Shown: positions 3,671-49,342, counted from the stretch's first letter. The stretch: 64,000 nt of DNA from Candidatus Kaiserbacteria bacterium (GCA_016214605.1 JACROD010000005.1:6108-70107), one strand, 5' to 3'. Notes: a model not told the origin generated them from the sequence alone. Translations and numbers: made by a program.

Positions 3671-4666
3671 TTAGTGTGCCGCTTTCCTAGAGATGACCTT
3701 GCGGATCGCGTCTTTGATATGCGATACCCCCATGTGGTAATGCTCGATCAGCTCTTTGGGCTCTCCTGATTGTCCGAATTGGTCGTGGACACCGATGAAT
3801 TCGATCGGTACCGGATGTTCCTGTGCGAGCACCTCGGCGATCGCACTCCCGAGCCCTCCGGCGATCTGATGTTCTTCGACCGTGACGACCGCTCCGGCGA
3901 GTCGCGCCTGCGCTTGAATCGTCTCTCGATCAAGCGGCTTGATGGTAGCGACATTGACGACATGTACTCCTACCCCCTCATCCCCCATTTGCTTCGCCGC
4001 GAGCATCGCATTGTGCAGAAGCGGGCCCGTGGCAAAGATGACCGCCTGCGGATTGTCTGCGGTGAGAAACACTTGTGCCTTGCCTATCTCAAATGGCGTC
4101 TCGGTGGTGGTCATCAGCGGAGTCTTTTCGCGCCCGAAGCGCAGGTATACTGGGCCGTCCCATTGTGCCGCCGCGATCGTCGCCTTGCGGGCTTCTTCAG
4201 CATCGCATGGAGAGATCACGGTCATATGGGGCTGTACGCGCATGAGCGCCATGTCTTCGAGCGCCTGATGTGTCGCCCCGTCGGGACCGACCGAGATACC
4301 GGCATGCATGCCGCAGACCTTGACTGGTACGCGGTTGAGCGAGATGGTCGTGCGGATCTGCTCATTGTTGCGCCCCGGATTAAAAGCTGCATATGAGGTG
4401 ATGAATGGGATCTTGCCCGCCGCCGCAAATCCCGCGCCGAGTGTAGCGAGATTTTGCTCGGCCACACCCACCTCGATATATCGCTCGGGAAATTGCTTTT
4501 TGAATCCTTCGACGCGGGTCGATTCGGTGAGGTCGGCGCAGAGCGCCACGACCCTACTATCGGCCATAGCCGCTTCGATAAGCCCATGCCCAAAACCATC
4601 GCGCGTCGGCGACTGCTCGGGAGCATCAAACATGTTTTCTTTGAGGTGGAGGTCGGGGTTTAACAT
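3671..4666 (-). CDS. tktB: Transketolase, C-terminal subunit (pyrimidine-binding plus C-terminal domain of a split transketolase).
   Basis: 331-aa ORF. Diagnostic segments include YIEVGVAEQNLATLGAGFAAAGKIPF and PVKVCGMHAGISVGPDGATHQALEDMALMR. Confidence 0.9.
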   Translation of the reverse strand: MLNPDLHLKENMFDAPEQSPTRDGFGHGLIEAAMADSRVVALCADLTESTRVEGFKKQFPERYIEVGVAEQNLATLGAGFAAAGKIPFITSYAAFNPGRNNEQIRTTISLNRVPVKVCGMHAGISVGPDGATHQALEDMALMRVQPHMTVISPCDAEEARKATIAAAQWDGPVYLRFGREKTPLMTTTETPFEIGKAQVFLTADNPQAVIFATGPLLHNAMLAAKQMGDEGVGVHVVNVATIKPLDRETIQAQARLAGAVVTVEEHQIAGGLGSAIAEVLAQEHPVPIEFIGVHDQFGQSGEPKELIEHYHMGVSHIKDAIRKVISRKAAH

Positions 4667-15276: not shown

Positions 15277-16338
15277 CTAAACGTGTTTGCCCGTCTCCAC
15301 CACATGTCGCACCAGGGTGTGCGTATACCCCATTTCATTGTCGTACCAAGCAAGGACCTTGACGAGATTACCATCGACGACGCGCGTCATGCCGAGATCG
15401 GCGATAGAGCCGTAGGGCTGCCCGATGATGTCTGATGATACGAGCTCTTCTTCAGAGGCGGTAAAAATACCCTTCCACCGATCGGACTGCGCAGCCGCCT
15501 TGAGGACCGCATTTACTTCTTCGACCGTGGTCGGACGCTTGGCGATAAAGGTGATATCTGCGATAGAGCCGGCAGGCACCGGCACACGCAGTGAAATACC
15601 GTCGAATTTCCCGGCGAGCGCCGGATATGCCTTGGTGACAGCGATCGCAGCGCCAGTCGATGTCGGCACGATATTTTGCGCTGCTGCGCGGCCTTCTTTC
15701 TTATCTTTCTTGGACGGTCCGTCGACGATCGACTGCGAAGCGGTGTACGCATGCGTCGTCGATAGGATCGCCTTCTCTATTCCTATGCCCTCGTCGAGGA
15801 TCGCGATGATCGGCGATGCGGCATTGGTCGTACAAGAGGCATTGGAGGTAACGGCGCAGGTCGAGACCTTGTCATTGTTGAGTCCCATGAGGATAGTCGC
15901 GCCCGGCACGCTGCCGTCGCCGTCTTTGGACGGAGCCGAGACCACCACGCGCTTGGCACCGGCAGTGATGTGGACACCTGCCTTGTCGAAATCAGTGAAA
16001 AGCCCGGTCGATTCGACGACCACATCGATATTCATATCGCGCCACGGGAGCGCGGCGGGATCTTTTTCGGCAAGCACTTTGAGTTTCCACTTCCCTGCCG
16101 TGATGACGCCGTCGGCCGCGGATACCTCAAACGGCGCACGCCTGTAGACCGTGTCGTATTTCAGCAAATATGCGAGATTGTCTATGTTGCCGAGGTCGTT
16201 TACCGCGACTATCTCGATGTCCGCCCCCGCCTCCGCGAGGCCAGAGCCCGCTTCGGCGTGGCGGAGGCCCGCATCATGCGCCGCACGGACGAACGCCCGT
16301 CCAATTCGCCCAAAACCATTGATAGCTACTCGTACCAT
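15277..16338 (-). CDS. gap: Glyceraldehyde-3-phosphate dehydrogenase (type I).
   Basis: 353 aa. NGFGRIGR NAD-binding N-terminus and the SNASCTTNA active-site cysteine motif are present. It lies 21 nt upstream of rpiB, giving a gap-rpiB-rpe operon. Confidence 0.95.
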   Translation of the reverse strand: MVRVAINGFGRIGRAFVRAAHDAGLRHAEAGSGLAEAGADIEIVAVNDLGNIDNLAYLLKYDTVYRRAPFEVSAADGVITAGKWKLKVLAEKDPAALPWRDMNIDVVVESTGLFTDFDKAGVHITAGAKRVVVSAPSKDGDGSVPGATILMGLNNDKVSTCAVTSNASCTTNAASPIIAILDEGIGIEKAILSTTHAYTASQSIVDGPSKKDKKEGRAAAQNIVPTSTGAAIAVTKAYPALAGKFDGISLRVPVPAGSIADITFIAKRPTTVEEVNAVLKAAAQSDRWKGIFTASEEELVSSDIIGQPYGSIADLGMTRVVDGNLVKVLAWYDNEMGYTHTLVRHVVETGKHV

Positions 16339-16443
16339 ATCTATATAGATGTATTCAGTTCAATAATATCCAAAAAGTATATCATGCCAAACCACTCCGT
16401 ACTCATGCGGATCAAGACAAAAACGAACTGCGAGAAGCAACTG

Positions 16444-16489
16444 CGAGAATCAGACCTTCGCAAATCCTTTGCGAAGGTCTGATTCTCGC
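16444..16489. repeat. REP-like palindromic element: 22-bp perfect stem gcgagaatcagaccttcgcaaa with a 3-nt loop tcc.
   Basis: Read directly from the sequence. It lies immediately 3' of the RAYT gene stop. A partial extra copy of ctgcgagaag sits at 16426..16435. Confidence 0.85.
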
Positions 16490-16495
16490 AAGCAA

Positions 16496-17197
16496 CTATT
16501 CTAAAGCAGCTGCGTACAGGTTGTTATCGGACTCCACTACACGATTTAGTATCATTTCCTTCGCATGCACTTTAAACGCGTCGAGTGAGTCAAACAATTC
16601 GCCAAAGATATCCTTCTCGATAATCGGCGACATACGACCTATCGCGTAATCTGCCAAGCTGGAAAATGGGTATTCTTCGACAGCCCACTTCCAAGCATTA
16701 TCGAATTCCGAGACAGCGAGGTCGTAGCCGCCCGGATAGAGTTCAAAAACATTTTTTACCATGACATAGGGTGCGACGTGTTTGAGGTAAAAATCATCAT
16801 CAAGTGTGCGCGATTTGAATGCCCCCTGGAAGATACTCCCCTTTTCTTCGTACTTTAGATTGAAGTGGGCAGTCATACTGTTGCCAATCTTTTGCATATA
16901 TTTTGAGACACCTCCTTCATTGATCTCTTTCAGTACCAAATGAAAATGATTCGGCATCAAAACCCACGCAAGCACCTTGACCAGAGGGCGTCGTTCAGGC
17001 CAAGAACTCGGCCGCTCAAAAATCCCCATACCGAAAGTGTCACGCTCCCACGTGTCAGATTTATACTCATCATTCATGTGATACAGGAGCCGTGCAAAGC
17101 GCCAACAGTCGGCAAGATCACTTGTAACAGGAAGACCTCGTGCGCCACGCTTCATAACGTGAACAAATGAGTCGACCCCATATGGCTCCTTGCGCAT
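16496..17197 (-). CDS. IS200/IS605-family Y1 (HUH) transposase of the REP-associated tyrosine transposase (RAYT) type.
   Basis: 233 aa. HUH motif PNHFHLVL and a downstream catalytic-Tyr region. The size and the flanking by REP-like hairpins are typical of RAYTs. Confidence 0.75.
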   Translation of the reverse strand: MRKEPYGVDSFVHVMKRGARGLPVTSDLADCWRFARLLYHMNDEYKSDTWERDTFGMGIFERPSSWPERRPLVKVLAWVLMPNHFHLVLKEINEGGVSKYMQKIGNSMTAHFNLKYEEKGSIFQGAFKSRTLDDDFYLKHVAPYVMVKNVFELYPGGYDLAVSEFDNAWKWAVEEYPFSSLADYAIGRMSPIIEKDIFGELFDSLDAFKVHAKEMILNRVVESDNNLYAAALE

Positions 17198-17227
17198 ATG
17201 ACGCGATTATAGCACCAAACTACTTTT

Positions 17228-17274
17228 GCGAGAATCAGACCTTCGCAAAGGCTTTGCGAAGGTCTGATTCTCGC
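17228..17274. repeat. REP-like palindromic element: the same 22-bp stem gcgagaatcagaccttcgcaaa with loop ggc.
   Basis: Read directly from the sequence. It lies 30 nt 5' of the RAYT start and 35 nt downstream of the giant-gene stop. Confidence 0.85.
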
Positions 17275-17308
17275 AGTTACGGCTCTGAGGCTAATCTCAT
17301 ATCCTTAT

Positions 17309-20300
17309 TCATTGGCTCGTGCTCGTCGTTGTTGAATCCACAGGAGCGGTCGATGACGAGGTGGAAGTGTCAATGGTCGACGGCGTTGAGGTCGACGTAT
17401 CCGTGGATGATGTGGTCGTATTGATGGTCGTCGTTCCTGAGGCCGTCTCTTCGGCTGGCGACGTGGTCGTCGTCGGATCATAGACGACGACCGTGCGCGT
17501 CGCCGAACCCTGCACACCGCTTGCGTCCGTGGCAAAGTAACGGATCGTATGCGTACCCGTCACACTCGTATCGATATGGATCTGATCGATTGTCGTCGTC
17601 GCTCCCCCATCCACGATCGCACTGATCCCGAGATTGAGCGCGCTCGTCGGACCCGTGATCGTCGCCCCGAGATCACTATATACCGAGCCGACCTGGATCG
17701 AAGCGGGATTGTTGCCGTTGACGGAGATGATCGGCGCCACCGATCCGGTCGCGGTGGTCGCAGTCGGGGTCGTGGCACCCGAGGAGACACCTCCGGTGCT
17801 ACCACCGGTCGCCCCGGCGGCGCCCGAGCCGCCTCCGCCAGAGGCTACGGCGGCCGAAGCGAGAAGCGCTTGGAGCTGCGCCTCGGTCACGCAGGTCGTG
17901 CCGACACACATCTGCTGCACGGCAGTCACTTTCTGCGCGGTGATGTTGTCGGCATAGATCTCCTTGGCAAAGACCTTGTCAAAGGCAGCGAGACTCCCAT
18001 GTACCGCTCCTCCGAGTTCACGCACGCCTGTGCCCGCGATACCAGACACCGAGGCAAGGGCCAAAGAAAGTGTGTCATGGAGCATCTGACTCACTCCAGC
18101 AAACGGACCATCGATGATTGCTGTCTGCGAACTCGTTGCAAAAGTGCTTGAAGCGATCGCCTGTATCGCCGAGACGTTAATATCCTGCAGGTTAACAAAT
18201 GCGAGGATCGCTGTTGAAGTCGCACCAGTCTGATATGCCTGCAACGCAATTGCCACACTCGGATCCATCGGGTCCGCCTTCATACCGACACCCGGTGTCG
18301 AAGTAGAGAGAGCAATGCGATCTCCGATTGCAATCGGACCGTTGTCGAGATTGACTAAGACCGGTACGCGTCCCACGAGCGCCACAGGATAGTGATTGTC
18401 TGTGGTATCGAAGGTACCATCCGGATTGAAGCCAAGTGTGAGACCTGGCGCGGTCGAGACAATGCCTATTATATGATGTTTGGTATCTGTCACTGCTGCT
18501 TTGATCGCCACATTACCTGCTGTCGCAACAATATTGCCCGGAACGAGAGTATCGTGCGATGCGTACATTTCCGCGACGTCAGAGCCACCCGTCGTAGACG
18601 TCACTGAACTAACACGACCAGTCGTCGAGGCGAAACACCACCCATCGCTGTCCACACAAAGACCGCCATTGACGATTGAGACACTCGCGGCGGTGCTACC
18701 ATTTCCGATGATCATATAGTTACTCGCTTGCGCAGCCGTAGCGGCGACACCAGAAGTCGTGAGGAACGTCGTGGTTGAGGTGAAGAATGTGACCGTAGTC
18801 GTACCAGAGTTACTTTGGATTTTCATAGCGGCATTTGCTGCGGTGGCAGATGACGTGGCAATCGTAAGGAGTCCCATCGGTGTCGTCGTGCCGATACCGA
18901 GATTCGTGCCGGTAAACGTGAGCGCCGTCCCGCTCGTGATCCGCGTGCCGTCGAAGAAATTCACGCCGTTGGTGACTTGGGTGCCCGTGGCCGTACCGCC
19001 ATTAGCGATGCCGAGAATACCGGTCAAATAGTTGACACCGATCGACGTGGTGGCGACGACCGCACCGCTTGCATTGGTGCTGAGGATCGCGTTGGCAGGA
19101 CCGATGAGGTAGTTGGTGCCGATCGTAGTGGTGGCGATTGGATTGCCGCTCGCGTCAAAGGCAAAGATGGATGATGCCGGGCCTTTGAGGAGATTCCAGC
19201 CGATTGTGGTAGAAGCAACCACCGAGCCATTCGCATTCGTACTGAGAATACTGTTGGTGATGGAGGTGATCGCAAAGGTGGTGGTGGTAGCTTGCTGGAG
19301 GCTGGCGGTGCCGTTTACGGTGAGATTATTGCCAAATGTTGCGGCGCCGTTGGAATTAATCGCAAGTGCGGCGACGGTCGAGGTGGCGGTCGCGGTCGAG
19401 GTGGCAATATAGAACGAGTTGCTGATACTGCGGAAGGTCCAAGCATTTGAACTTGCAGTGCCGTCAGTGAGTGCGATCTGTGGACCGGTGGACGATGCGA
19501 CGGTCAATTTCCAAAATGGCGTCGTCGTACCGATGCCGACGAGACCGGTGTTGGTGATGCGCATTTGTTCGGTGAGTGATGTCGTTTGCGCTGTTTTGAA
19601 TATCATGGCACCGCCTACGCCCGCGACATCAGTACCCGTGCCGCCGATACCGGCATTGAGCGTGAGCGCACCTCCCGCTCCGCCCGTCCTCGTGCCCGGG
19701 GTCGCGTTGGCATTGGTCGCGGCCCCGCCGGTGCCTGCAGAAAGCGCGACAGCTCCGCCGGCGCCGGCTGTATTTACTCCGGTCGTGTTGCCACTCGCCG
19801 CGCCGCCGGTGCCTGCTGTCCAGGTGAAGGCACTACCCGCACCGCCGGTGTTGTTGCCGGTACCCGCGACGGATGCGGCGCCGCCCACACCGCCGGTCAT
19901 CGTGAAGGTGCCGCCGGCGCCGCCGGTAGAGAGCACATCGGCTGCGGTGGCGGTGCCGCCGGCCCCCATTGAAAAGGTGTGCCCGCCACCCGCGCCGCCG
20001 GTGGCGGTGCCCGTGTTGGTATTGGTACCGCCGGCGCCGGTCGTCAGCGTGAGGAGACCGCCCGCGAGAGTACTCGACGCACTCGCGGCGCCCGTGGTGA
20101 GTGTGATCGCGCCACCGGCGTTTTGTCCTTTTGACGCGCCTGCAGTAACTGTGACGGCACCACCGGCACGGGCTACACTGTTGTCACCAGCTGCCGCACC
20201 GGCAGTAAGGGTCAGCGCGCCGCCGGCGCCGCCACTTCCTATGGACGTACCCACATCACCAAGGATGGATACTCCACCGCCGGCAGAGCTGGTGGCCGCA

Positions 20301-23300
20301 GCGGCGGTTCCTCCACTGATAGTGAGGAGACCACCACTGCCACCCGTGTCAGTACCTGCACCACCGGCGCCAGCGTTGATAGTGACCGCACCGCCTGCAC
20401 CGCCGGTACGTGTGCCTGGTGTCCCGTTGGCGTTGGTAGCGGCACCGCCGGTGCCGGCTGTCCAGGTAAATGCTCCTCCGATGCCGCCGGTGTTGTTGCC
20501 GGTCGTGTTGCCGTTGGCAGCACCGCCGGTGCCTCCTGTCCAGGTGAAGGGGCTGCCCGCGCCACCGGTGTTGTTGCCGGTACCGGCGACGGAGGCCGCG
20601 CCGCCGACGCCGCCGGTCATGGTGAAGGTGCCGCCGGTGCCGCCGGTGGAGAGGACGTCGGCTGCGGTGGCGGTGCCGCCGGTACCCAGCGTGAATGCAA
20701 ATCCACTGCCGGTGCCGCCCAGGGCTGTACCGGTATTCGTATTGGTGCCGCCCAATCCACCCGTGAGAGAGATTGCACCGCCGGCAAGCGTACTTGATGC
20801 ACTCGAAGCACCGGCAGTGAGTGTGATGGCACCACCTGCATTATTTCCCTTCGATGCTCCGGCAGTGATCGCGATGGCGCCGCCAGCACGAGCCACGCTG
20901 TTATCTCCGCCTGCCAATCCGCCCGTGAGGGTGATCGCGCCGCCGGCGCCGCCCGAGCCGGTCGTGCCGCCGGCCGCACCGGTGATAGTAACGGCGCCGC
21001 CGGCAGAGCTCGTGGCCGCGGCAGCAAGACCGCTGGAGAGCGAGAGGCCGCCGCCGTTGCCGCCTGTGTCAGTACCAACGCCGCCGGCGCCGGCACGTAG
21101 TGTGATCGCACCGCCGACGCCGCCGGTGCGTGTGCCCGGTGTCCCATTGGCGTTGGTAGCAGCACCGCCGGTGCCGGCTACCCAGGTGAAAGCACCGCCG
21201 GTGCCGCCGGTGTTGTTGCCGGTCGTATCCCCATTGGCCGCGCCGCCGATACCGCCTGTCCAGGTGAAGGCACTGCCCGCGCCGCCGGTATTGTTGCCGG
21301 TACCGGCGACGGAGGCCGCGCCGCCGACGCCGCCGGTCATGGTGAAGGTGCCGCCGGTGCCGCCGGTGGAGAGGACGTCGGCTGCGGTGGCGGTGCCGCC
21401 GGTGCCGAGGGTGAGCGTGAGCGCACTGCCGGCGCCGCCGGTGCGCGTGCCTGTGTCGGTAGTCACACCACCCGTGATGCCTGCGATGTTCAAGATCGAA
21501 GTCGCTGCCGTACCGTTGCCCGATGACGCCGATGTCGGCTGTGTACCCGAGACATGGAGCATTGAGGTGGGTGCCGTGATGCCGATACCGACGAGATTGG
21601 TCGGCAAGATGCGCATCGCTTCGCCGAGACTACCTGCATTGAGGGTGAGGAATGCGAGCGCACCCGATGAAGCACCTGCGGTATGCGCGGTGTTGATGCC
21701 GACGATTTGTGCAGAAGAAGTGGCTCCGCCATTGGTCAGATCCTGTGTGCGGAATGCGAGTGTCGAGAAATTGTTGGCGGTCGTATTGCGGTTGCTGATC
21801 GAAAGCGTCGTGCCAGACGTGAAGGTGTTGAGTGTCGTACCCGCATCAGAGCCGGAGATTTCGATCGCGGAGTTGGGGCTTGTGGTGCCGATACCAAATC
21901 TGTTGTTCGTGTCATCCCAGAAGAAGTTGCTGTTATCCTGCGTAAGCGAAGTGCCATTGGAGAATATCACCGAGCCGGCGGTGTATGCAGAGGAGTTGTT
22001 GGTACCGCCATTGGCAATGGCGAGTACACCGGTCAGATAATTGGTGCCGATGGATGTCGTCGCAACAACTTGGCCGCTACTATTCGTAGAGAGTATCGCG
22101 TTGGTGATACTGGGAATATTAAGGATGCCGAGCGAAGCTGTCTGCGCGAAGAGATTGGTCGATGATGCCGTCGTAGAGAAGAGATTCGTGGTGGTGGCAT
22201 TGCCCAAGATCGTGAGGCCGGTGGCAGTAAAATTGGTCGTGCTCGCTCCCCCGTTCATACTGAAGAGTCCTGAGGTGATCGTGCTAGATGCGGTGGAAAG
22301 GAAGCCGCCGGAGAGAGTCGCGAGGCCGGTGTCTCCCGCGATCGAGAAAAGCGAGGTGCCGGTCGAGCTTGCGATGACGAAAAGCGGATTGGTCTGGCCT
22401 GCCGTGCCCGCGAGCGAGAGACTGCCCCATGGCGTGGTGGTGCCGACGCCGACGTTGCCACCCATGAAGAGACCGGCGATCGGTGTGGTGGCGCTCGATG
22501 ATGCGACATACGAGAAGATGCCGCCGGTGGAGTAGATGCCTCCCGCACCGGCGTTGAAAGTATCGGCAAAGATATGACCCTGCGAGGTGAGATCGTTGCG
22601 CAGTTGCAAAGAGCCCGCGTCGAGCGTACCCACAGCCAGCGATTGCAGATCGGCACCGGTGATGTCGTGTACGACAAGGTCATTGCCCGAGATGCTCGAC
22701 AGCCCGACGAATGCGCTATGACCGGAGACAACGAGACCTTGGACGTTGGCATTTTCGTCAACACCGCCGACGGCAATCGGATTGTATGGATCGGATATGT
22801 CGTACACGCGGAAGTCGCAGCCGGTGATCGTTGTTGAGTTGCACGAACCAGCGAGCGAGCTTACACCGAGATACATATATCGTCCCGAGACTTGGACAGT
22901 CTGCGCAGCAGCGGCACTGATGACCGAGGTGGTGGCGATCGCGGTCGGGTTGGAAACATCGTAGATGATGAGGTTGCCCGTGACGCCGCCCGTGTCTTTG
23001 CCTACGTAGGCATAATTGCCCGAGACGGCGATGGCGCGGCCGTTGGTGCCGAGGTCCATACCGCCGACAGTGACGGGGGCAGCGGGATTGGAGATGTCCA
23101 CGATGATAAAGTCGTTGCCGGTAACACTTCCTTGGGCGATATACGCATAATTACCCTGTACGCGCAGACCAATACCGGCAGTACCCAAATCGAGCCCGCC
23201 CACCGTTACCGGATTGGTCGGATCCGAGATGTCGATGATACGGAAGTCGTTGCCGGAAACAGAGTTCAAAGTCACGTACGCATAATGCCCCGAAACGACC

Positions 23301-26300
23301 ACGTTAATACCGGAAATAGCAAAGTTGAGACCGCCTTTGAACAGGGGTGCGGATGGATTGGAGATATCGTAAATGCGGAATTCGCAACCGGTGGCGGTGG
23401 TCGAGTTGCAGGTGCCGGCTACCGTGCTGACCGTTACGTATGCATATTGCCCCGCTACCGCGATACCGTTGCCATGCGCGGTCGCCGTCGGTCCGAAGTC
23501 GGCACCGCCGAGGAAACGCGGCGTGCCCGTAGCTATATCAAAGATGCGGAGTTCGCAATCTGACATATCGCTCGTGGAGCAGCCGGTATTGGCGGTCGTG
23601 GAGGCGGTGACCAGGTAGAGGGTGTTGCCGACGACCGTCATATCCTGCCCGCCAAAGAGTGACTCCCCCACCCCGATCCCGAGATCGACGCCGCCGAGGA
23701 GCGCGGGATTGTACAGCTGCCCTGAATTACCGCTGCCGCCCGTCTGGAAGATATTGCCACCCATCACGGTGAGCCGCTCCTGCGGAGAGGTCGTACCGAC
23801 GCCAAGGTTTGTGCCGTCGAAAGTGAGCGCTGTACCGCTCGTAATGCGTGTCCCATCAAAGAAGTTCACACCATTCGTCACCTGCGTACCGGTCGCTGTT
23901 CCCCCGTTGGCGATCGGGAGGATACCACTGAGATAGTTCACGCCGATCGAGGTAGTGGCGATCACCATGCCGTTTGCATCGGTGGCAAGAAGTTTGCTGG
24001 TGGTGGCTTTGAGGTTAAGTGTGCCCAGTGATGCAAGCTGCGAGAAGAGATTCGTGGAGCTGGCGGTGGTGCTGAAGAGATTGGTCGTGGTGGCATTGCC
24101 CAAGATCACAAGACCGGTGGCAGTGAAGTTGGTGGTGCTCGCTCCCCCGTTGGCTGAGAAGAGACCGCTTGTGATGGTCGAGGATGCGGTACTGATGAAG
24201 CCACCGAGGGTCGAGAGACCGGTGACGCCAAGCGTGCCGCCCGTGGAGATGTTTGAGGCAGCAAAGGTCGTGCCGTTCCAGGTGATGGCGGTGCCGGAGG
24301 TGATGCGCGTACCGTCGAAGAAGTTCACACCGTTGGTGACCTGTGTGCCGGTCGCGGTGCCGCCGTTGGCGATCGGGAGGATGCCGGAGAGATAATTCAC
24401 ACCCACGGAAGTGGTGCCCACGACATTACCGGAGGAATCGGTGGAAAGCAGGAGATTGTTACCTCCCTTGAGGTAGTTGAGACCGATGGTGGAGGTGGCC
24501 GTCGGGTTGCCCGAAGAGTCGAAGGCGAAGATGGATGATGCCGGGCCTTTGAGGAGATTCCAGCCGATGGTGGTGGTGGAGACGATCTTCTTGTTGGCAT
24601 CAAGCGCAAGAAGCGTTGACGCGGTGAGATTGGTGAGCCAGGTCGATCCGGAGAAGGTGGCGAGAGTCGTGCTGGATTGAGCGATGTTGAGCGGTGCCGA
24701 GAAGGTGGACGATGCATTGGCGACGATGTTGCCGTCAAAGGTGGAAAGACCCTGCGAAGTAAAGCCACTCGCAAACGTGGCCAGGTCATTGACGAAAAAT
24801 GAGGAGCTCGGGGTATACGTAAGGCCTCCATCACTGGTGAATTTGGTACCATCGAAGTACATGACGCCATTGGTCGTGCCGCCGGTGGAGTTGTTGGTGC
24901 CTCCATTGGCGATCGGGAGAATGCCAGTGAGGTAGTTGACACCAATCGACGTGGTAGCAATCACCATGCCGTTTGCATCGGTGGCAAGGAGCTTGCTTGT
25001 GGTCGCGCGGAGATTGAGTATGCCGAGGCTTGCGGTCTGCGAGAAGAGATTGGTGGAGGATGCGGTCGTACTGAAGAGATTGGTCGATGTCGCACCATTC
25101 TGGCCGATGAGGAATACCGTACTCGATGAGTTGTTGACTGCCTCAAAGAGATTGGCAGTACCCCAGGTGGTGAGCTTGCTGTATGGAGTGGTAGTGCCGA
25201 TGCCGATGTTGCCACTTGATACAGTTGAGCCGGTACCGGTAATACCGGTGCCGTAGATGATATTGCCAATGTTGAGTTGGCCGCTGGCTGTCGCACTCGG
25301 AAACGAGATATTATTGCCGATGAGGATGTTTTGCGATCCCGTGGTGAGGTTGGCTATTGCGGCCGAGGAGGTGGCGGTACCGATCCAGATGTTGTTGCTC
25401 CCGGTCGTGATGCCGCGACCGGATTGATAGCCGAAGAGCGTGTTGAAATCGGAGTTGGTCTGGGCACCATACCCGGCAAGATAACCGACGTACGTGCCTC
25501 CTTGGTTATTGAAGTTGGCAGCCGCATTGCCAGCACTCGATCCTATCGCGACAGAACTGGTCGCGGAGATATTGAGTCTCGATGCATTCGCGCCGATCGC
25601 GACGTTGTCAGAACCGGTAGTATTCAGGCGCAAAGATTCATTTCCCATCGCCGTATTTGAACTGCCGGTCGTGAGTGCATTCATCGCGGCACGTCCCATA
25701 GCGTTATTAAAATCGCCTGTCGTGATTGCACTCAGTGCGAACGTCCCGAGTCCGTAGTTTTGCAAACCAGTCGTACTCGTGTTACCTGCAGATTGGCCGA
25801 TGAAAAAAGAATTGAGTGTCGAGGATGCTTGCAAGATCAGATTACCGTCGATCTTGTACCCGCCCGTCGTGCCGGAGGTGTTGTAAAATCCGGAAGCGTA
25901 TACATCGCCTGCAACGGATAACAAGGAGCCGGGTGTGCTGGTCCCGATCCCCACATTGCCACTTCCCTGTTGCAAGACGAATTGGCTGGTACCGATGGTG
26001 AAGCCTTGGCCGGCGGCGATGGTGGATGTGCCACTCGTCTGCGTGCTGTTGAAGAGTGGCGCGCCAAAGGTCGTGCCGTTGAAAGTAAGCGCAGTACCGC
26101 TCGTGATCCGCGTACCGTCGAAGAAGTTCACACCATTCGTCACCTGCGTACCGGTCGCTGTTCCCCCATTGGCGATCGGCAAGATACCACTCAAGTAGTT
26201 GACGCCGATACTTGAGGTCGCGACGACGCTGCCATTTGCATTGGTCGAGAGGATCGCCGACGCGAGATTGGTGATGGCAAAGTTGGTGGTGGTCGCACCA

Positions 26301-29300
26301 TTCTGTCCGATCGAGAAGACGGTCGATGAGCTGTTGGTGACGGCTTCGAATAAGGAGCCGGTGCCCCAGGTGGTGAGCTTGCTGTATGGCGTGCTGGTGC
26401 CGATGGCGATATTGCCGGTCGATATCGTCGCCCCCGTACCAGAGAGGCCGGTGCCATAGATCAAGTTGCCGATGACGAGCTGATTGGACGCGGTCGCGCT
26501 CGGGACGGCCACGTCATTGCCGATCGCGATATTGTTGCTTCCGGTGGTGACCTGATCGCGTGAAGCGGTGATGGTGGACTGGCCGAGGAGGACGTTGCGG
26601 GCGCCGGTAGTAATGGCGTAGCCGGATTGATAGCCGAGGAGGGTGTTGTAGTCGGAGCCGGTGGTGAATCCTCGCCCTGCAGAAAAGCCAATGACCGTAC
26701 CCCCTTGATTACTATAGTTGGCGGTGCCGATCGCGGCTGAAGACCCGATAGCGACGGTACTGGTGGCTGACTGATTGAAATTGGAAGCCGAAGAACCGAC
26801 AGCGACGTTGCTGCTACCTGTAGTATTGGAAAGAAGAGCATTATAGCCACTGGCAGTATTGGAACTGCCGGTAGTGTTGAAGATGAGGGATCGCGCACCC
26901 AGAGCGGTGTTGGAACCGCCAGTGGTGTTGGACTGGAGCGTACTGTTGCCGCTCGCGGTGTTATTGGTACCTGTCGTATTAGAAAAGAGAGCGAGATAAC
27001 CGGTCGCAGTATTGATCTGACCTGTGGTATTGGAACTGAGCGCGTTGTATCCGACCGCGGTATTTGCTATCGCTGTGCCCGAAGTCGGCGTCGTGCCGAG
27101 CGCACCTTGACCGATGGCGACAGAAAGCCAGCTTGTCGAGGATGCACTCATCCAAGCGGCTGCAGCAGATGCACCGACAGCAAGAGATGTATTCGTCGTA
27201 CTCGCATACAGTACTGTGTTTCCGGCCTGCTTGTATCCTCCCGTTGTACCATCTGTGTTGATGAAGCCATTGACGTCGAGCGAGTAGCTCGGGGTGGTGT
27301 CATTGATACCGAGATTGGTCCCATCAAACGTAAGCGCTGTGCCGGATGTGATCCGCGTACCATCGAAGAAGTTCACGCCGTTGGTGACTTGGGTGCCGGT
27401 CGCGGTGCCGCCATTGGCGATTGGGAGAATGCCGGAGAGGTAATTGACCCCGATCGAGGTGGTCGCGATCACCATACCGTTTGCATCAGTGGCAAGGAGC
27501 TTGCTTGTGGTCGCCTTGAGCGCGAGCGTGTTCCAGATATTGGCCGAGGCAAGCTGTGATGTGGAGGATGCATAGAAGCCCATCTGATACCAGGTCGGTG
27601 TGGTAGTGGCGTTGGTCGATGTACCAAAGGTGGTGGCTATGGTCCAAGGCCAAGAGGTTCCGCTTGATGGCCAGGTGGTGCGGCACGTATCGCCGGTGAA
27701 GCAGATGGTGGTCGCTGCAAAGTTGGTCGAGGTAGCACCATTCTGACCGATGAGGAATACTGTACTCGATGAGTTGTTGACCGCCTCGAAGAGATTGGCA
27801 GTGCCCCAAGTGGTGAGCTTGCTGTATGGCGTGCTGGTGCCGATGGCGATATTGCCGGTCGATATCGTCGCCCCCGTACCAGAGAGGCCGGTGCCATAGA
27901 TCAAGTTGCCGATGACGAGCTGGTTGGAGAGTGTGGAGGATGCAATGGCCACGTCATTGCCGATGGCGATGTTATTGGAGCCTGTGGTGACTTGGTTTTG
28001 TGAGGCGGCGATGGTGGACTGGCCGAGGAGGACGTTGCGGGCACCGGTGGTGATGCCGTAGCCGGATTGGTAACCGAGGAGGGTGTTGTAATCGCTTCCG
28101 GTGGCGAAGTTGAAGCCGGCTTGCATGCCGACGACGGTGCCGCCCTGATTGGAGTAGTTGCCGTTGCCCTGGCCGGCATACGCACCGAAGGCAGTGGTGC
28201 TGGTGGCAGACCCGTTGTAGAACAGAGCATAGTAGCCATTGGCGGAGTTATTGGAGCCGGTGGTGTTATTGAAGAGCGCGTTGCTGCCGTTGGCGGTGTT
28301 GTACGAGCCGATATTTTTGTTCAGAGCATTCGTGCCGATGGCGGTATTCACGACACCGGTGGTATTAGAGGTGAGCGCATAGTAACCGATTGCAGTGTTG
28401 CCATAACCGATTGTATTGGCGGATAGACTTTGGATACCGATTGAGGTGTTTAATTGGCCGTTAGAACCGAGATGATCCGTGGGGATCGTTGCGAGCGCAC
28501 CGGAGCCGATGGCAATGTCATTCCAACTTGTCGACGACGCACTCATCCATGCGGCGGCTGCTGATGCACCAACAGCGAGAGATGTGTTGGTCGTGCTCGC
28601 ATACAGCACCGTATTCCCCGCCTGTTTGTATCCGCCCGTCGTGCCGTCGGTGTTGACGAAACCATTCACATCGAGAGTGTACGTAGGTGCCGTGAGCGAA
28701 CCGACGCCGAGCTTGCCCGCAAAGATCGAGTTGGCGGTCGAGGAAGTCGCGAGATACGCCGCGGCGGTCGGTGTCGATGTGGAAACGATGCGCGTACCGT
28801 CGAAAGCAGTAAGCATATGACTGCCGATCGAGCTTGCATTAGTGCCGCCATTCGCAATGCCGAGAATGCCCGAGAGGTAATTGACCCCGATACTCGTGGT
28901 CGCCGTCGGATTGCCCGAAGAGTCGAACGCAAAAATGGATGATGCCGGGCCCTTGAGGAGGTTCCAGCCGATTGAGGTGGTGGCGACGAGCTTTTGATTG
29001 GCGTCGAGCGCGAGAAGACTGCTTGCGGCGATACCAGTAAACCAGGTGTTGTTGGTGAATGTGGCGAGGCTCGTGGTGCTCTGGGAGAGATTGAGAAGCG
29101 CCGAGAAGGTCGAGGAAGCTTGCGCGATGAGACCGCCGGTAAAGGTGGAGGCGGTCGATGAAGTGGCGTTGAAGTACTGAGCTGATACGGCACCTTGGAC
29201 GTTGAGCTTGTCGGTCGGAGCACTGTTGCCGAGGCCGAGCTTGCCGTCTGCAGTGAGGACGGTCGAGAGCACACCATTGGCATCATAGATATCGATCAGG

Positions 29301-32300
29301 TTGGCTGATTGGCTTGCGGCAGCGGAGAGGACGAGGGTCGTGGTGGCGGCGGAGCCTGAGAGGATGGAAAATTTGGCATACGGAGTCGTGCTCGCACCGA
29401 CCACCGCCAGATCCGTGGTGGTAGCGAGGGTGACACGACCGATACTGTTGGTGGTCCAGCCGCCGCCGGTGCTCGCGCCACCGACCGAGATCGTACCGCA
29501 AGAGATATTGCCCGAACCATCGGTCTGCAGCGCCTGACCTCCCGTACAAGTAGTGACCGATCCGAGCGCGAGGGTACTGGTGAAGCGGCCGGTGCCAGAG
29601 ACGTCGAGTGTGTATGAGGGAGCATTGGTGCCGATGCCCACACGGCCGCTTCCCTGTTGTACTACTAATTGTGTACCGCCGATAGTGAAGCCTTGGCCGC
29701 TGGCGATGGTGGATGTACCAGAGGTCTGCGTGCTGTTGAAGAGTGGCGCGCCAAAGGTCGTACCGTTGAAGGTAAGTGCGGTGCCGGAGGTGATCCGCGT
29801 ACCGTCAAAGAAATTCACACCGTTGGTGACCTGTGTGCCGGTCGCGGTGCCGCCATTGGCGATCGGCAAGATACCACTCAAATAGTTGACTCCGATGGTG
29901 GTAGTGGCGATGACCATACCATTCACATCCGTGGCGAGGAGCTTGCTGGTGGTGGCATTGAGATTGAGTGTGCCCAGTGATGCAAGCTGCGAAAAGAGAT
30001 TTGTGGAGCTTGCAGTGGTGGCAAAGGTGTTGGTGGTTGTGGCGTTGCCCCAGATGAATACATTGCCCGATACGGCGAAGGTGGCGGAGGGAGCGGTGGT
30101 GGCAATGCCGAAGCTCCCTGCTGACGTAAGTCGTGCACCTTCGGTGAGGGTGCCGGAGCGAAGTGTGGCGAAGGCGAGATCGCCGTTCCCGGTTTGTGGT
30201 ACGCCGCCGGTGCCTCCCTGGAAGATGCTGAAGATGGATGCGGTCGTGGTGCCGGTGTTGTGGACGATGTCGTCGGTCTTGAATGCGAGCGAGACCTTGG
30301 TGGAAGAGGTGGCCGAGCCGAAGTTGGAGAGGGAGAAGGGTGTGGTGCTGGCTGAGGTGTTGTCGGAGACTTCGAGCTTGGTCTGTGGAGTGGTGGTGCC
30401 GATGCCGACGTTGCCGGAGTTGTTGGAATAGATGGCGTTGGAAGCTCCCAGTGTCCACGGCGTGTTGATCGTGAGTGCCGAGCCGCCGACCAGGAAGCCT
30501 GCAGTACCGGTGAAGGTCACGCCGGTGCCGGCGGAGACACTGGAAGTGGCGACGGAGGTGAGGCCGTTGGTGCCGTTGCCATACAGAAGCTGACTGCTCG
30601 TGAAGGTGGATTGACCGGTGCCGCCGTTGGCGATACCGAGGATGCCGGTGAGGTAGTTGGTGCCGATTGATGTGGTCGCGACGACCGCGCCGCTTGCATT
30701 GGTGCTGAGGATGGCGTTGGCAGGGCCGATGAGGTAATTGGTACCGATCGTGGTGGTCGCCGTCGGATTACCCGAAGAGTCGAACGCGAAAATGGATGAC
30801 GCCGGACCCTTGAGGAGGTTCCAGCCGATGGTGGTAGATGCAACGACCGAGCCGTTGGCGTTCGTGCTGAGGATACTGTTGGTGAGCGAAGTAATCGCAA
30901 AGGCGGTGGTAGTAGCGCGGGTCAAGGTGGCGTTGCCGGAGAAGACGTTGGTGCCGCTCCAGGTATTGGCGTCAGACAGCAATGTCGTCGAAGCGCCCGT
31001 GAAGGTCTGCTGGGTCTTCCAGTAGTCAGTCGAGGTGGTGGAGAATGCGAGACCTTGGTTTTGTGAGAGGAAGTACGAGGCGGAGGTGGTGGCCCAGCGG
31101 GTCTGCGTGGTCTCCCAGTATGCTGTGGAGGTCGTGGAGAAGAAGTTGTTGGCGGTTTTCCAGTAGTCGCTCGATGTCGTCGAGAAGAAATATCCCTTAT
31201 TGAGGGTATTGAGATAGGTATTCACCAGCGTGTCACTGTAGTACTTGTTGGTGCTACCCTGCGCGAGACCGTCGGTCGTGGTAGCGTACCACGACAAGAG
31301 TGAAAGTTTGGCATCGAGCGCACTCTGCAGGTCGGTTTGGTTGCTCAAAGTGCCTGTAATAGAGCCCCAGATTGCGCTGTTGATGCCGAGGGAGGTGGTG
31401 GAGACGTAGTCGAAGGTGCCGCCGCTGTTGCCCATGAGGAGCTTGCCGTATGTGGGGGCGCTGGATGTGCCGGTACCGCCGTTTGCAATCGAAAGTACAT
31501 TGGTAACATCACTCGCCAGGTTTACAAACCCCGTTGATATCACGCCGGCGGTTGCTTTTAGCAAACCATTCAGAGAGCCGATGGAGAGGCTATTCACCGA
31601 GAGCCCGCCGATGTTTGCCGCTGTGGCATAAAGATTCGTACTTGAGGCAGTCGTTGCAAAGAAATTCGTTGCGGTTGCACTCGTGGTTGTAAGGTTCGTT
31701 ATCGTACCGGTCGCCGCATTAAAAAGCGACGCAAAGAGCGATGTCGTAGTTGCCGATGTGATCGTCGCAGTCCCCAAAATGGCGTCCGTTGAGAAAAGAT
31801 GCGTCGAAGAGGAAATCGTTGAGAAAAACGACGTCGTTGTCGCCGACTGACCGGTCGCGCTTACAAAAGTGATTCCCCCGATATTGCTAACCGAGAACAC
31901 CGTCGCACCTGTCGAAGACGCGAGCGAAAACAGTGTAGAGGTGGTATCAGTCGACGACGCAACGATAGCAAGCCGCGCCGTCGGCGTGGTCGTACCGATA
32001 CCAAGGTTACCCGAGGACGCATTGTATGAAAAATTACTCACGCCATCAAACACTCCTCCGTTGTTGAATTGGATTTGTCCGCTTGATCCGCCAGGCGTAC
32101 CGCCTCCACCGCCAGTCGTTATACAGTTACCATTCACCGAGAAACATCCTCCTGAGAGAGCGATACCATTGGCAAATGTCGAGGTTGCCGTCGTCGACGA
32201 TATGGACAAAACCCCTGCCCCGAGACCGCCTGAAAACGTCGATGTGCCGCTATATGTGCTTTTCAAAAGTCCTGTGAGTGTACCACCGGAGACCGCAAGA

Positions 32301-34119: not shown

Positions 34120-35031
34120 TCATCTATGACCAGCAGGGTTTTCGTAGTTTTCCGGCTCAGGCGGACGAACGGGACCCGCGTATGGCTTGATACTAATGTA
34201 AACAGAACCACGCACCCCTGCGGTGTGCGCCCAAGCAAGGCCCGAGGCAGATTCGACTGCCGCGACAAGACGCCCCGGATCGGCGTCTTGAATCTGTACA
34301 AAGGTTTCTTTGAGCGCCTCTTTGCCACCAAGTGCATATCGGGGGTCAATCACAGAGTACAAGCTAGACGCGATCATAACGGCGATACTGAGCGCAAAAG
34401 CTTTCTGGGTGAAAACCGCAAAAGAGGAGGATAAATATGTGGGTTTATAGCTATTTCCGATCTGCCTTATGTGGCCAGTACGCTTTCCCTCATCTTGTTT
34501 GCGCACCACCAACTCAAGCTGATCTCGAATACTTCTTACTGACGAAAGATCGTCCCAAGATTTTGATAAAAACTGCGTAGTATCAGGTGTACTAATCGCC
34601 CTTTTCGAAGAATTCTGACGCACGAAAGACGGATGTTCCGGTGGATTAGTCTGAATAGCAGGATTTTGCGGCCAATAAGAATATCGGAAAATATCCTTTT
34701 CATTCAATGTGTTTTGACTTTTTGAAATCATCGGCTCAACCATTGTAAGAGAGGTGCGCCGCTCATCCTGGAAGCTGGCAAGCGCCCGGTGATATTCGTT
34801 CCGGCGTTGCTCAGAAAGTGTTTGACGACTCTTGCTTTTCGAATACTCTTGCGTGGTCAGGAACGCCTGAAATGAGTTTTTGTCGACATACCACAGTTTG
34901 CCGATGCGTTTCCCACACACTTTTCCGTCACGGCAAAGACGCCCGACATAGTCGCGAGTGAATCCGGATGATTCTGCCGCCTCACGCGCAGAAACATAAT
35001 GCATTCCGTCAAAAAATATTTCGTCACTCAT
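34120..35031 (-). CDS. Membrane protein (303 aa). It has one N-terminal wHTH-like module paralogous to the giant-protein N-terminus, a long linker, a TM helix and a short extracytoplasmic C-terminus.
   Basis: YVSAREAAESSGFTRDYVGRLCRDGKVCGKRIGKLWYVDKNSFQAFL shares the pattern Y[IV]S..A.....G...DY[IV]..L.R.G.[IV]......G.LW.VD..S...F with the giant protein. The hydrophobic segment is FALSIAVMIASSLYSVI. Confidence 0.6.
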   Translation of the reverse strand: MSDEIFFDGMHYVSAREAAESSGFTRDYVGRLCRDGKVCGKRIGKLWYVDKNSFQAFLTTQEYSKSKSRQTLSEQRRNEYHRALASFQDERRTSLTMVEPMISKSQNTLNEKDIFRYSYWPQNPAIQTNPPEHPSFVRQNSSKRAISTPDTTQFLSKSWDDLSSVRSIRDQLELVVRKQDEGKRTGHIRQIGNSYKPTYLSSSFAVFTQKAFALSIAVMIASSLYSVIDPRYALGGKEALKETFVQIQDADPGRLVAAVESASGLAWAHTAGVRGSVYISIKPYAGPVRPPEPENYENPAGHR

Positions 35032-36339: not shown

Positions 36340-36509
36340 GCACTGCAGTATATACGAGAAAGGTCCGCACGTCATACAGGCGAGATAACCCTGTGGATAG
36401 CACATCAAGATATCGGGACCTAGGCGAGATCCGAGGCACTCACATGTCTCGTTATGTCAGCCGCTACGATTCTAAGACCATTAAAAAATCGTCCTTCCGA
36501 GATATTATT

Positions 36510-38288: not shown

Positions 38289-38289
38289 T

Positions 38290-42421: not shown

Positions 42422-42515
42422 CCATAAATAGGGACAAATGCGCCGCAAGCACTATGCTTGCGGCGCATTTCTTTTTTGCCATAACTCCTCGCCTATTCGG
42501 ACATGCCACCAACGC

Positions 42516-47062: not shown

Positions 47063-47107
47063 CGAGAATATGTGTCGTGGTGTTTGGGAAGGTCTGACCT
47101 TCCCAAA

Positions 47108-49342
47108 CTACTGCACCTTGGCCGTACCATCCTTGATCTGCTTGATGTAGGTATCTACCTGGTCGGCGGCACTCGGAGCCTGTTTCTTGGCAGCTTCGAG
47201 CACAGCTATCGCTTGGACGCGATCTCCGGTCGCGTAGGTAGCGGCGGCAAGTGTGAAGTATGCTTGAGTATCGCTAGGATTGGCCTTGACGCGGGCCTGC
47301 CAGATCGGCAAGATCTTCGCATACTGACCGCGTGCGGCGTAGGCGGCGGCGATGCGTGTATCTGCGGCGCGTCCGGACTCTACGATCGGCACCAGGATCT
47401 GATCTGCCATCGTGTCGTTGTTGGTGCGGATGAGGATCGCAGCATAGAGGATGCGCGCTTGATCGAAGCTCGGATCGAGCTCGTACGCTTGCTTGAATGC
47501 CGCGAGAGCCCCCGGAGCATCCTCACGCGTGATCGCATTGACTCCCATCTCAAAAAGGATCGATTGCTTGGCCGGTGAAAGATCGTGAGCCTGCTTGAGC
47601 GATTCGGCAGCACCTGTGTAATCCCCATAGGCACCCTGGGTGACGCCGAGGAAAAGCGGGAAACGAGCATCCATCGGCGATGCTTTTTCTTGGAGCGTCA
47701 TCTGTTCGATCGCGGCGTTGTAGAACTGCTGTTTGGCATCCGTAGAGATGTTGGCCTGTGCAAGCTGTGATGTGATCTGGGTCAACTGTTCGCGTGCTTC
47801 CTGTGTGCCAAACGCACCATAGTCGATTGTTTCTTTGAAAGCGGCGAGGTTGTCGAGCACCCCGCTTGCCGATTGCATGCTTATGGCCCTGATGAGTGCC
47901 TGATTCGCGGCAAGCGCCTTGGCGTTGACCGCGTAGACGGTGCCACATACGCCGATCGCCAAGACGACAGCGATGGCCGGGAGCGCCGAACGCGGTAGCA
48001 GCGTCCCTTCATAGATCGAATCGGACTTGCTTACCTCACTCGTGCGCCACACGACATACGCGAGGATCGTACCGAAGAGTATGTAGCTTGTGACATTGTC
48101 GAAGACGAAGAAATTGTGGATGAAGTATCCGGCTAGAAGTCCCGTGAGGAGGCTGCGCTCCGCGATCGTGAATACATGATGCCCATGCACGCGCCGCCAT
48201 ACGGTCCACAAGATCGCCACAAAGATCGAGAGGTACGCGAAGAGACCGAGGAATCCGCCAGCGACGAGCCAGTCGAAAATGATGTTGTGTACGCGATCAA
48301 ACCACTGTTCCTGCGCATACATGCGCGGATCGTAGTACTTGTCGAATACGATCGCGTAGTTCTCCTGACCCCACCCGAGGACCGGGCGTTCTTTCACTCC
48401 TTGCCATGCCATACCCCAGTTGAAGAAGCGCGCCTTCACGGTAGCATCTTGCACCGAGATCGTCGCGAGACGCTGGAGGAAGCCGATCTTCTGGATCCAG
48501 ACAGCGTCGCGGACAGCCCAGAAACTGCCGGCCACGATGAAGATCCCTACAAGTGCGGCCACCGACATGCGCCAGACATTGCGTGAACGGCGAGCCAAAA
48601 TGAGCACCAAGAAGACCGAAATGACCGTGCCGACGATGAGGCCGATCATGGTACCGCGCGTACCGGTAAGGAAGAGCGCGAGCGTATCAAGAAGGATCGC
48701 CACCCCGTAAAAGACCGATGAGAGCATACGCTTGCCCTTGGCCTTCTCGACCCACATTTGCGCCCATAGCATCGCCGCGATGAAAATATGGAAGAGCATA
48801 TACACGGCCATGTAGATCGGATTGCCAAAGGTCGCATCGATACGACCTTGCAAGCCCGAAGTACCACCTTCACCCAAAGCGAAAAACCCTGCCACCTGCA
48901 AAAGGCCGTAGAGGCTCAAGAGCACCGAGATGCCGATAGAGAACTGGAAGAGCCAGCGCCAGAGCTTCTCACTGTTGATCACGACCGAAGCGACGACCGT
49001 ATACGCGAGCAGATGCGCGATCGTGATCCAGCCATCCATGCGCTCATAGTTGCTCCAGAAGCTCTTGAACGGATACACGCCCTGCGCATCGGCGATCGCA
49101 ATCACCAGCACAAATATCGCAAGTGCTGCCAAGATCCAATCGCGGCGCGGGCGGTATTTGGGCGAGATGAGTGCCAGCGCGAGCCATGCTCCCGCCATGA
49201 TCTCGACAATGATACGGAAGGCAAAGTTCTTGCCGGTGATGTACGGGAAGAAAAGTGAATTGGCGACGTAAAGCGGAATAATAGGGAGCGCAAAAATGCC
49301 GATAAGGACGATCCATCGAAGGACCTTTTCTAGTGATGTCAT
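47108..49342 (-). CDS. O-antigen ligase/polymerase-like (Wzy_C-type) polytopic membrane protein with a C-terminal TPR-repeat domain.
   Basis: The track ORF is 47108..49387. The likely start is MTSLEKVLRWIVLIGIFALP at 49342. There are more than 10 predicted TM helices, followed by TPR-like repeats (AYFTLAAATYATGD, ARILYAAILIRTNN etc.). Confidence 0.5.
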   Translation of the reverse strand: MTSLEKVLRWIVLIGIFALPIIPLYVANSLFFPYITGKNFAFRIIVEIMAGAWLALALISPKYRPRRDWILAALAIFVLVIAIADAQGVYPFKSFWSNYERMDGWITIAHLLAYTVVASVVINSEKLWRWLFQFSIGISVLLSLYGLLQVAGFFALGEGGTSGLQGRIDATFGNPIYMAVYMLFHIFIAAMLWAQMWVEKAKGKRMLSSVFYGVAILLDTLALFLTGTRGTMIGLIVGTVISVFLVLILARRSRNVWRMSVAALVGIFIVAGSFWAVRDAVWIQKIGFLQRLATISVQDATVKARFFNWGMAWQGVKERPVLGWGQENYAIVFDKYYDPRMYAQEQWFDRVHNIIFDWLVAGGFLGLFAYLSIFVAILWTVWRRVHGHHVFTIAERSLLTGLLAGYFIHNFFVFDNVTSYILFGTILAYVVWRTSEVSKSDSIYEGTLLPRSALPAIAVVLAIGVCGTVYAVNAKALAANQALIRAISMQSASGVLDNLAAFKETIDYGAFGTQEAREQLTQITSQLAQANISTDAKQQFYNAAIEQMTLQEKASPMDARFPLFLGVTQGAYGDYTGAAESLKQAHDLSPAKQSILFEMGVNAITREDAPGALAAFKQAYELDPSFDQARILYAAILIRTNNDTMADQILVPIVESGRAADTRIAAAYAARGQYAKILPIWQARVKANPSDTQAYFTLAAATYATGDRVQAIAVLEAAKKQAPSAADQVDTYIKQIKDGTAKVQ

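Follow-up and report, generated by a model that had tools for sequence, protein, structure and literature searches.

The window analyzed here, a 64-kb stretch (64,000 nucleotides) from a Candidatus Kaiserbacteria bacterium (GCA_016214605.1, JACROD010000005.1:6108-70107), contains a gene for a 233-aa Y1 transposase-like protein of the HUH type (16496..17197, minus strand) that is bracketed by two long, nearly identical palindromes. With a probability of roughly 0.7, we interpret this arrangement as a REPtron-like unit, i.e., a resident Y1/HUH gene resembling those of the REP-associated tyrosine transposases (RAYTs; REP, repetitive extragenic palindrome) together with its own cognate hairpins, which belongs to a Patescibacteria-wide clade outside the existing classifications. 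On the minus strand, a giant gene with an open reading frame (ORF) of 5422 aa (17309..33577) is followed by a hairpin, the Y1 gene, a second hairpin and gap (15277..16338, minus strand). The first-pass annotation of the window had placed the unit in just this position, between the gap operon and the 3' end of the giant gene, and the 233-aa ORF with the HUH motif NHFHLV that it had described was recovered by ORF calling, with an ATG start and the motif at residues 83-88.

The palindrome upstream of the Y1 gene (17227..17275) comprises 49 nt, of which a single one forms the loop of a 24-bp stem. It lies 34 nt past the stop codon of the giant gene, leaves 30 nt to the Y1 start codon and folds as single-stranded DNA (ssDNA) at -28.7 kcal/mol (z = -11.4). 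The downstream palindrome (16442..16490), likewise of 49 nt, with a 23-bp stem and the loop TCC, begins 6 nt beyond the Y1 stop codon and folds at -28.9 kcal/mol (z = -10.3). The downstream copy reads TGCGAGAATCAGACCTTCGCAAA-TCC-TTTGCGAAGGTCTGATTCTCGCA and the upstream copy is the same with GGC in the loop region, the stem sequence being GCGAGAATCAGACCTTCGC. All four arms are identical and the copies differ at two loop positions only, which agrees with the first-pass description of perfect palindromes differing in the loop alone; the size given there, 47 bp with a 22-bp stem, has to be revised to 49 nt with stems of 23-24 bp. A search of the window with the 22-mer stem, allowing up to three mismatches, returned four occurrences, namely the four arms, where none was expected (100 shuffles). 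Each arm of the upstream palindrome holds a degenerate form of the apex motif found throughout the family (GAATCAGACC / GGTCTGATTC), and the window palindrome is an inverted doublet of the family unit described below, its arm CGAGAATCAGA resembling the unit CCGAGAATCAGATGCTCGG of the related locus L006 (comparison loci are cited here by L numbers). The possibility that each 49-nt palindrome represents two independent REP hairpins was rejected for the window, the half-units folding at -1.7 and -1.5 kcal/mol, no better than shuffles; since the half-units no longer fold alone, it is the long 49-nt hairpin that is maintained here. For relatives such as L006, the interpretation as doublets is valid. 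An Rfam search with the palindromes yielded sub-threshold noise only. The GC content of the unit is about 45%, as compared to 55-65% in its flanks. Directly outside the downstream palindrome, next to AACTGCGAGAATC, 13 nt of the outer arm end are repeated in direct orientation as AACTGCGAGAAGC (16426..16438); the repeat is probably left over from an additional hairpin unit or from an earlier cleavage/joining event. The repeat sits within a 55-nt tail (16387-16441), and tail and unit are both absent from the related locus L091.

The Y1 protein starts with MRKEPYG and displays the HUH histidines H84 and H86 (NHFHL), an FQG motif at residues 123-125 and the tail motif YPFSS (S179, S180). From its position relative to the other motifs, Tyr144 (YVMVKN) is likely to be the catalytic tyrosine rather than Y137. 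In an alignment of 108 sequences N83, H86, Q124, Y144, K148 and N149 are invariant and H84 is conserved in at least 90%, while S179 and S180 are invariant among 26 aligned sequences and nearly so among the 108. As the HUH motif and the tyrosine are invariant or nearly so over these 108 members, catalysis has presumably been retained; the window ORF is of full length and keeps all family-invariant residues. The family consensus around the tyrosine is Y-[IV]-M-V-K-N-V, in which the Asn is displaced by one position and the Pro is absent. The Pfam Y1_Tnp profile (PF01797) matched residues 73-145 with 27.3 bits and thus passed its cut-off of 23, and the sole NCBIfam family matched by the window protein was REP_Tyr_transpos (36.9 bits). 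The same RAYT model was matched, below its cut-off, by 26/26 aligned homologs; the NCBIfam IS200 model gave weak matches in only six of these (best E = 0.0012). Neither the Y---Q motif of IS200 in the Y1 protein nor, with Pfam, an HTH/DnaA_C tail domain was detected. The AlphaFold (AF2) model of the protein (predicted local distance difference test score 92.4) places Y144 on a helix formed by residues 135-151 and shows a helical C-terminal tail. All top matches of this model in Foldseek were Y1 transposases, and the best PDB match was 4ER8 (4er8_A), the E. coli RAYT with a REP hairpin (E = 4.5e-6, 198 columns), ahead of the transposases of ISDra2, IS608 and IS200 at about 3e-4 and weaker. A sequence search alone reached only ISDra2 TnpA (E ~0.06). 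These profile matches and the structural model support the view that the Y1 protein is closer to RAYT than to IS200 TnpA. In the databases, a protein identical to that of the window carries the label 'transposase'.

Homologs of the Y1 protein were found in large number (707), and those with a named source belong nearly all to Patescibacteria; a profile search of 1.84 billion representatives returned 178 clusters at E <= 1e-30. The flanks were surveyed at 80 homolog-encoding loci from GTDB representative genomes, all of them Patescibacteria, with 76 full genes, using a palindrome scan that imposed no sequence on the apex or elsewhere. A hairpin was present within 130 nt upstream of 69 of the 76 genes and within 130 nt downstream of 62, with 57 genes having both and two having none. 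The consensus unit is T-GTGG-AAGTC-W-GACTT-CCAC-A, with a conserved apex (AAGTC-W-GACTT), a conserved outermost T/A and, between these, a stem that varies by locus. The GTGG element, at stem positions -9 to -6, is paired and reaches a plurality only. Counts of pair types in the stems are circular, as the units were selected for pairing, and were used only to show that the stems of different loci are not the same. Within 150 nt of Y1 genes, the density of family-type palindromes was about 50-fold that found elsewhere (127 in 79 kb versus 18 in 573 kb), and many flanks carry the hairpin unit as an inverted doublet. The central loop base (A or T) was considered as an orientation marker and found unreliable, the upstream and downstream copies agreeing in some loci and being inverted in others. 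Overall, the survey supports a family-wide rule by which the gene stands between cognate palindromes. In two paralogs of the metagenome-assembled genome (MAG) VGJQ01 a cognate unit was seen within the 3' part of the Y1 coding sequence itself (L049, 1051-1067; L059, 4561-4579).

The Y1 genes behave as residents and not as insertion sequences. Where dS is unsaturated, the ratio of non-synonymous to synonymous substitution rates (dN/dS) amounts to 0.06-0.09, indicating strong purifying selection. Paralogs within one MAG are 35-68% identical, and in the MAG data no pair within a genome exceeded 68% identity, i.e., no near-identical copies were found. The hairpin stem type is specific to each paralog, as exemplified by the five paralogs of MAG VGJQ01, and tracks the Y1 paralog rather than the neighboring genes. 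Close homolog pairs are collinear through their flanks. In seven lineages (the window, L006, L011, L012, L013, L020 and L027), gap-rpiB is immediately preceded by a Y1 gene, and a second group of paralogs is located between the ribosomal/rpoA cluster and mreB (nine loci); neither tnpB nor any other recurrent partner gene was found among the neighbors of the Y1 loci. Between genomes, Y1 identity lies about 5 points below GAPDH identity, and here only the similarity of the absolute levels is used since the Spearman correlation of the two was 0.19 and not significant. The GC content of the Y1 gene follows that of the host (r = 0.76) and, at every locus, is about 7 points under that of the flanks. 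Low GC as a sign of recent horizontal transfer was rejected on account of this family-wide offset and of its relation to host GC, and for the same reason the low GC of the window gene is regarded as a property of the family. Low copy number, divergent paralogs, vertical inheritance and purifying selection are the traits by which RAYTs have been set apart from IS200 (Bertels et al., 2017, PMC5581495; Quentin et al., 2018, PMC6006769).

Hairpins away from the Y1 genes are real in the relatives of the window, where cognate orphans occur, but they are few. Locus L006 is a member of the orthologous group upstream of gap, to which the window gene belongs as well; within 8.7 kb it carries seven cognate units, among them an orphan doublet at 3.9 kb from the gene and an orphan singlet at 1 kb. 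An orphan doublet of L006 (2843-2889) is identical over 47/47 positions to the Y1 flanks of L054 (3918-3964 and 4732-4778), which stems from a different MAG, and this points to either extreme sequence conservation or transfer between both organisms. L006 derives from Parcubacteria GW2011_GWC2_48_17 and L054 from a Taylorbacteria RIFCSP bin, and their neighboring proteins are only about 45% identical. In MAG VGJQ01, an orphan of the L057 type was found on the L001 contig and one of the L066 type on L089, a contig of the same metagenome. In the window, an orphan hairpin of another stem type, GTTTGGGAAGGTC-T-GACCTTCCCAAAC, with a 13-bp stem (47082..47108; ssDNA fold -13.1 kcal/mol, z = -5.9), is located between two minus-strand genes, 30 kb from the Y1 gene; it shares its stem type with the Y1 flanks of L015 (matching flank sequence TGGGAAGGTCWGACCTTCCCA), and this sequence match suggests a second Y1 paralog, or the relic of one, in the source genome. 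The 22-mer stem of the window had no match in the GTDB representative genomes. A 19-mer of the stem gave eight matches in JGI metagenomes, all in coding-looking contexts, which are read as chance because they are single and non-palindromic and none lies next to a Y1 gene.

The junction of the giant gene and gap is a hotspot of structural variation among close relatives, as seen from loci with a GAPDH 90-96% identical to that of the window. In L091 (GAPDH 92% identical), gap directly follows the 3' end of the giant gene and a segment corresponding to 16387..17289, i.e., both palindromes, the gene and the 55-nt tail, is absent. In L092 and L093, two unrelated ORFs replace the Y1 unit between giant gene and gap, and L093 carries at about 4215-4240, upstream of the gap promoter, a degenerate solo hairpin with the family apex (TGAAGGTCAGACTTCCTTCA). 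In L001, whose Y1 protein is 85% identical, the order is giant gene, Y1 gene and a 464-aa ORF, which by eye only, with no profile check, we take to be MurA-like; the gap operon of this MAG is located after secA-gatB-349aa on L089. The presence of the 464-aa ORF after the Y1 gene of L001, with the gap operon elsewhere (L089), places a breakpoint at the downstream hairpin. The Y1 genes of the window and L001 share 78% DNA identity and their hairpin sequences differ; given that the arms are identical within each genome yet different between the two, concerted evolution is indicated. When window positions 35353-40830 are compared with positions 1-4955 of L089, gap comes right after secA-gatB-349aa in L089, but in the window it is separated from these genes by a 303-aa ORF, by the giant gene and by the Y1 unit. 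From this sequence comparison, the giant gene and the Y1 unit seem to have moved together as one block. Regarding the neighboring genes themselves, the N-terminus of the 5422-aa ORF contains two tandem copies of a segment of about 60 aa (KYISSKDAAALFGVTNDHISRLCRQKKIRG...) with a helix-turn-helix-like appearance, and the 303-aa ORF just upstream of the giant gene (34120-35031, minus strand) gave a sub-threshold match to Pfam HTH_17. It is unusual for a giant surface-type protein to begin with what looks like a DNA-binding domain.

An extended -10 box, TGCTATAAT, was read from the sequence 8 nt before the ATG of the Y1 gene (17206..17214, minus strand), with the upstream palindrome sitting at the -35 position; a promoter tool that requires a -35 hexamer did not list this box. 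A -10-like box precedes the start by no more than 30 nt in 54 of 76 homologs, most often at a distance of 6-8 nt, as compared to seven control windows. Because the box is so close to the start codon, the Y1 mRNA is probably leaderless or nearly so. The gap genes of L011, L012, L013 and L020 also have -10 boxes (TGnTAtAaT) 6-8 nt before their start codons, as in the Y1 homologs, with no room for a Shine-Dalgarno sequence, and from these sequences leaderless mRNAs appear to be common in these genomes. The downstream palindrome was classed as terminator-like, but terminator-like counts in the region did not exceed those in shuffles.

For E. coli TnpA-REP, cleavage and joining of cognate single-stranded REPs have been demonstrated in vitro (PMC8266576; PMC6006769). 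By homology with this enzyme and with the IS200/IS605 TnpA proteins, we infer binding, cleavage, strand transfer and autoregulation for the window protein. It would bind hairpins extruded from ssDNA, e.g., in the lagging-strand template; H84 and H86 would coordinate the metal, and Tyr144 would cut beside the hairpin to form a covalent 5'-phosphotyrosine intermediate, after which the strands would be rejoined. Such cleavage and joining would keep the four arms identical, would occasionally seed orphan hairpins and would render the flanks prone to deletion and rearrangement. Moreover, the Y1 gene is served by a -10 box immediately behind the upstream hairpin and probably starts without a leader, so that the protein, when bound to this hairpin, could control its own gene.

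Several observations weigh against a REPtron-like unit. The window protein does not reach the NCBIfam RAYT equivalog cut-off of 80, it gave no match to 4ER8 at the sequence level (17% identity), and it lacks the Y---NP signature of RAYT class 2, having Y-x-x-x-K-N instead. Within the 64-kb window and with up to three mismatches, no cognate hairpin copies were found beyond the two flanks, and no GTAG or GTGG stands at the foot of the window palindromes, where canonical REPs have GT[AG]G. Nor do the half-units of these palindromes fold alone, only the 49-nt hairpin does. The insertion or deletion of the whole unit between close relatives and the GC deficit of about 7 points would fit a mobile cassette as well, and Y1 genes were located near contig ends 22 times, as compared to 15.5 +/- 2.8 expected. 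MAG assemblies collapse identical repeats, so that multi-copy states may be hidden. The term 'REP/RAYT unit' chosen in the first-pass annotation holds for a RAYT-like enzyme with cognate flanks, but is not supported for 'REP' in the sense of many dispersed copies, the two flanks being the only ones in 64 kb. No hairpin copies exist inside the giant surface-protein gene, where the annotation had considered them possible; it is the junction between this gene and gap that varies in structure among close relatives. The choice it had posed between RAYT and a decayed IS200 remnant falls on the RAYT side: the RAYT profile was matched by 26/26 homologs versus 6/26 for IS200 and 4ER8 leads the structural matches, the ORF is intact with a low dN/dS of 0.06-0.09, and the putative catalytic Tyr144 is in place, invariant in all 108 aligned sequences.

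Among the alternatives, an autonomous IS200-like insertion sequence, in which a 0.9-kb hairpin-gene-hairpin cassette excises and reinserts as ssDNA with the hairpins as its left and right ends, is unlikely, even though it would fit the compact unit with a hairpin at each end, the passing of the Pfam Y1_Tnp cut-off, the presence or absence of the entire unit between close relatives and a GC content below that of the host. The mild enrichment of the genes near contig ends, with five contigs ending inside the gene, and the 47-nt doublet that is 100% identical in two different MAGs can be counted on the same side. A mobile element of this kind would, however, be hard to reconcile with the lack of near-identical gene copies in any genome (paralogs being 35-68% identical), with positions beside housekeeping genes that are conserved across lineages at a GAPDH-like divergence, or with both ends being the same symmetric palindrome instead of distinct left and right ends. 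Additionally, the protein has 233 aa with a C-terminal tail as opposed to a core of about 150 aa, no Y---Q motif and no tnpB (PMC6006769, Table 1), and the NCBIfam IS200 model was matched weakly and in 6/26 homologs only.

It is somewhat less probable still that the gene encodes a domesticated HUH protein without a present role in mobility and that the hairpins serve mainly as operators and as transcript-end or insulator elements for the giant gene, the Y1 gene and gap, the few orphans being relics. The location of both hairpins between co-directional genes, the overlap of the upstream hairpin with the -35 position of a leaderless promoter, the terminator-like listing of the downstream one, the small number of orphans, and the strong selection with positions fixed for a very long time would be in accordance with such a regulatory role. 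Against it, the terminator-like count is not above that of shuffles, the hairpins are without the T-tracts that mark the evident terminators of this genome (e.g., 42513-42546 and 43259-43288), and their type goes with the Y1 paralog and not with the neighbors; furthermore, the catalytic HUH and Tyr residues, (near-)invariant over 108 members, as well as the cognate orphans would be left unexplained. That ordinary intergenic palindromes happen to lie beside a degenerate transposase remnant is next to impossible: despite the fact that the window holds two copies only and profile scores are weak, zero chance matches are expected, the same arrangement recurs on both sides of 57/76 homologs, and the ORF is intact and conserved with a dN/dS below 0.1.

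A more far-reaching version of the REPtron-like interpretation is put forward tentatively and is doubtful as it stands: the family may be an ancient, unclassified Patescibacteria subclass of RAYT-like genes, with paralog lineages fixed at their own sites (gap-rpiB, mreB) and each locked to a cognate hairpin with an RTC-W-GAY apex that overlaps a leaderless promoter, so that the enzyme would serve the host or police its own site rather than multiply REPs. Such a role is considered because the gene has been retained over the long term in genomes that are so small and repeat-poor. That the enzyme drives local deletion and rearrangement beside giant surface-protein genes is one possibility. To our knowledge, no benefit of RAYTs to their hosts is known, even in E. 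coli. The clade described here may be viewed as a stripped-down RAYT system, in which very small genomes with few hairpins maintain several paralogs with distinct cognate hairpins. Its conserved apex should be the recognition element, and in vitro tests can directly address whether specificity resides in the apex or in the stem and whether the function is mobility or regulation. The clade also marks a recurrent hotspot of gene-order change beside the giant surface-protein genes of Patescibacteria, and automated 'transposase' labels in the genomes of this group mask a conserved resident gene family.

In comparison with known systems, E. coli TnpA-REP (RAYT, YafM; PDB 4ER8), a member of subclass 2.2 (Quentin et al., 2018), shares the Y1/HUH fold and is the best structural match. 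The E. coli REPtron similarly has its gene bracketed by cognate palindromes, here in the form of inverted doublets like REPINs (doublets of inverted REPs), and, like the window family, it occurs in few copies, with divergent paralogs that each have a separate hairpin family, is inherited vertically and is under purifying selection. On the other hand, TnpA-REP is only 17% identical, has 165 aa versus 233 aa and carries Y---NP instead of YxxxKN. E. coli REPs have an unpaired GT[AG]G foot in place of the conserved apex RTC-W-GAY of the window family, and they are dispersed by the hundreds as compared to a few hairpins in a Patescibacteria host.

TnpA-Y1 subclass 2.1 (TIRYT) shows several likenesses on the protein level, i.e., NH[YF]H, FQ for WQ, the SS tail, a median length of about 238 aa and about two divergent copies per genome (PMC6006769, Table 1); it differs in its Y motif, which is YIELNP and not YVMVKN. 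Moreover, the corresponding TIRtrons are reported to lack REP-like hairpins and to have long terminal inverted repeats with GGGGWSAS (Di Nocera, 2013, PMC3733652), neither of which applies here: the flanks of the window gene and of its family are self-complementary hairpins that do not contain the GGGGWSAS motif. Subclass 2.4, with its 'double-foot' and in-gene REPs (PMC6006769), has the HUH motif NH[IFV]H in common with the window family and is reminiscent of it in the presence of GTGG and its complement at both feet in a subset of the family and of units inside the 3' part of the gene in L049 and L059. However, GTGG/CCAC is paired here, reaches a plurality only and is absent from the window hairpin, the protein is longer, and the W and Y motifs as well as the taxon differ. 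With the IS200/IS605 TnpA proteins (IS608, ISDra2), the window family shares the fold, the predicted catalytic chemistry, the Pfam Y1_Tnp match and hairpins at both ends of a unit of about 0.9 kb, whereas those elements have Y---Q, often tnpB, identical copies in multiple numbers and distinct left and right ends, as opposed to the conserved chromosomal positions and symmetric, identical palindromes seen here. A full-text literature search brought up no account of RAYT-like genes accompanied by hairpins of this kind in Patescibacteria or the candidate phyla radiation, and one 2026 preprint merely mentions the KEGG label in an archaeon. Taken all together, the RAYT-like clade of Patescibacteria is a variant of the known RAYT system that lacks several of its canonical features and is moderately surprising.

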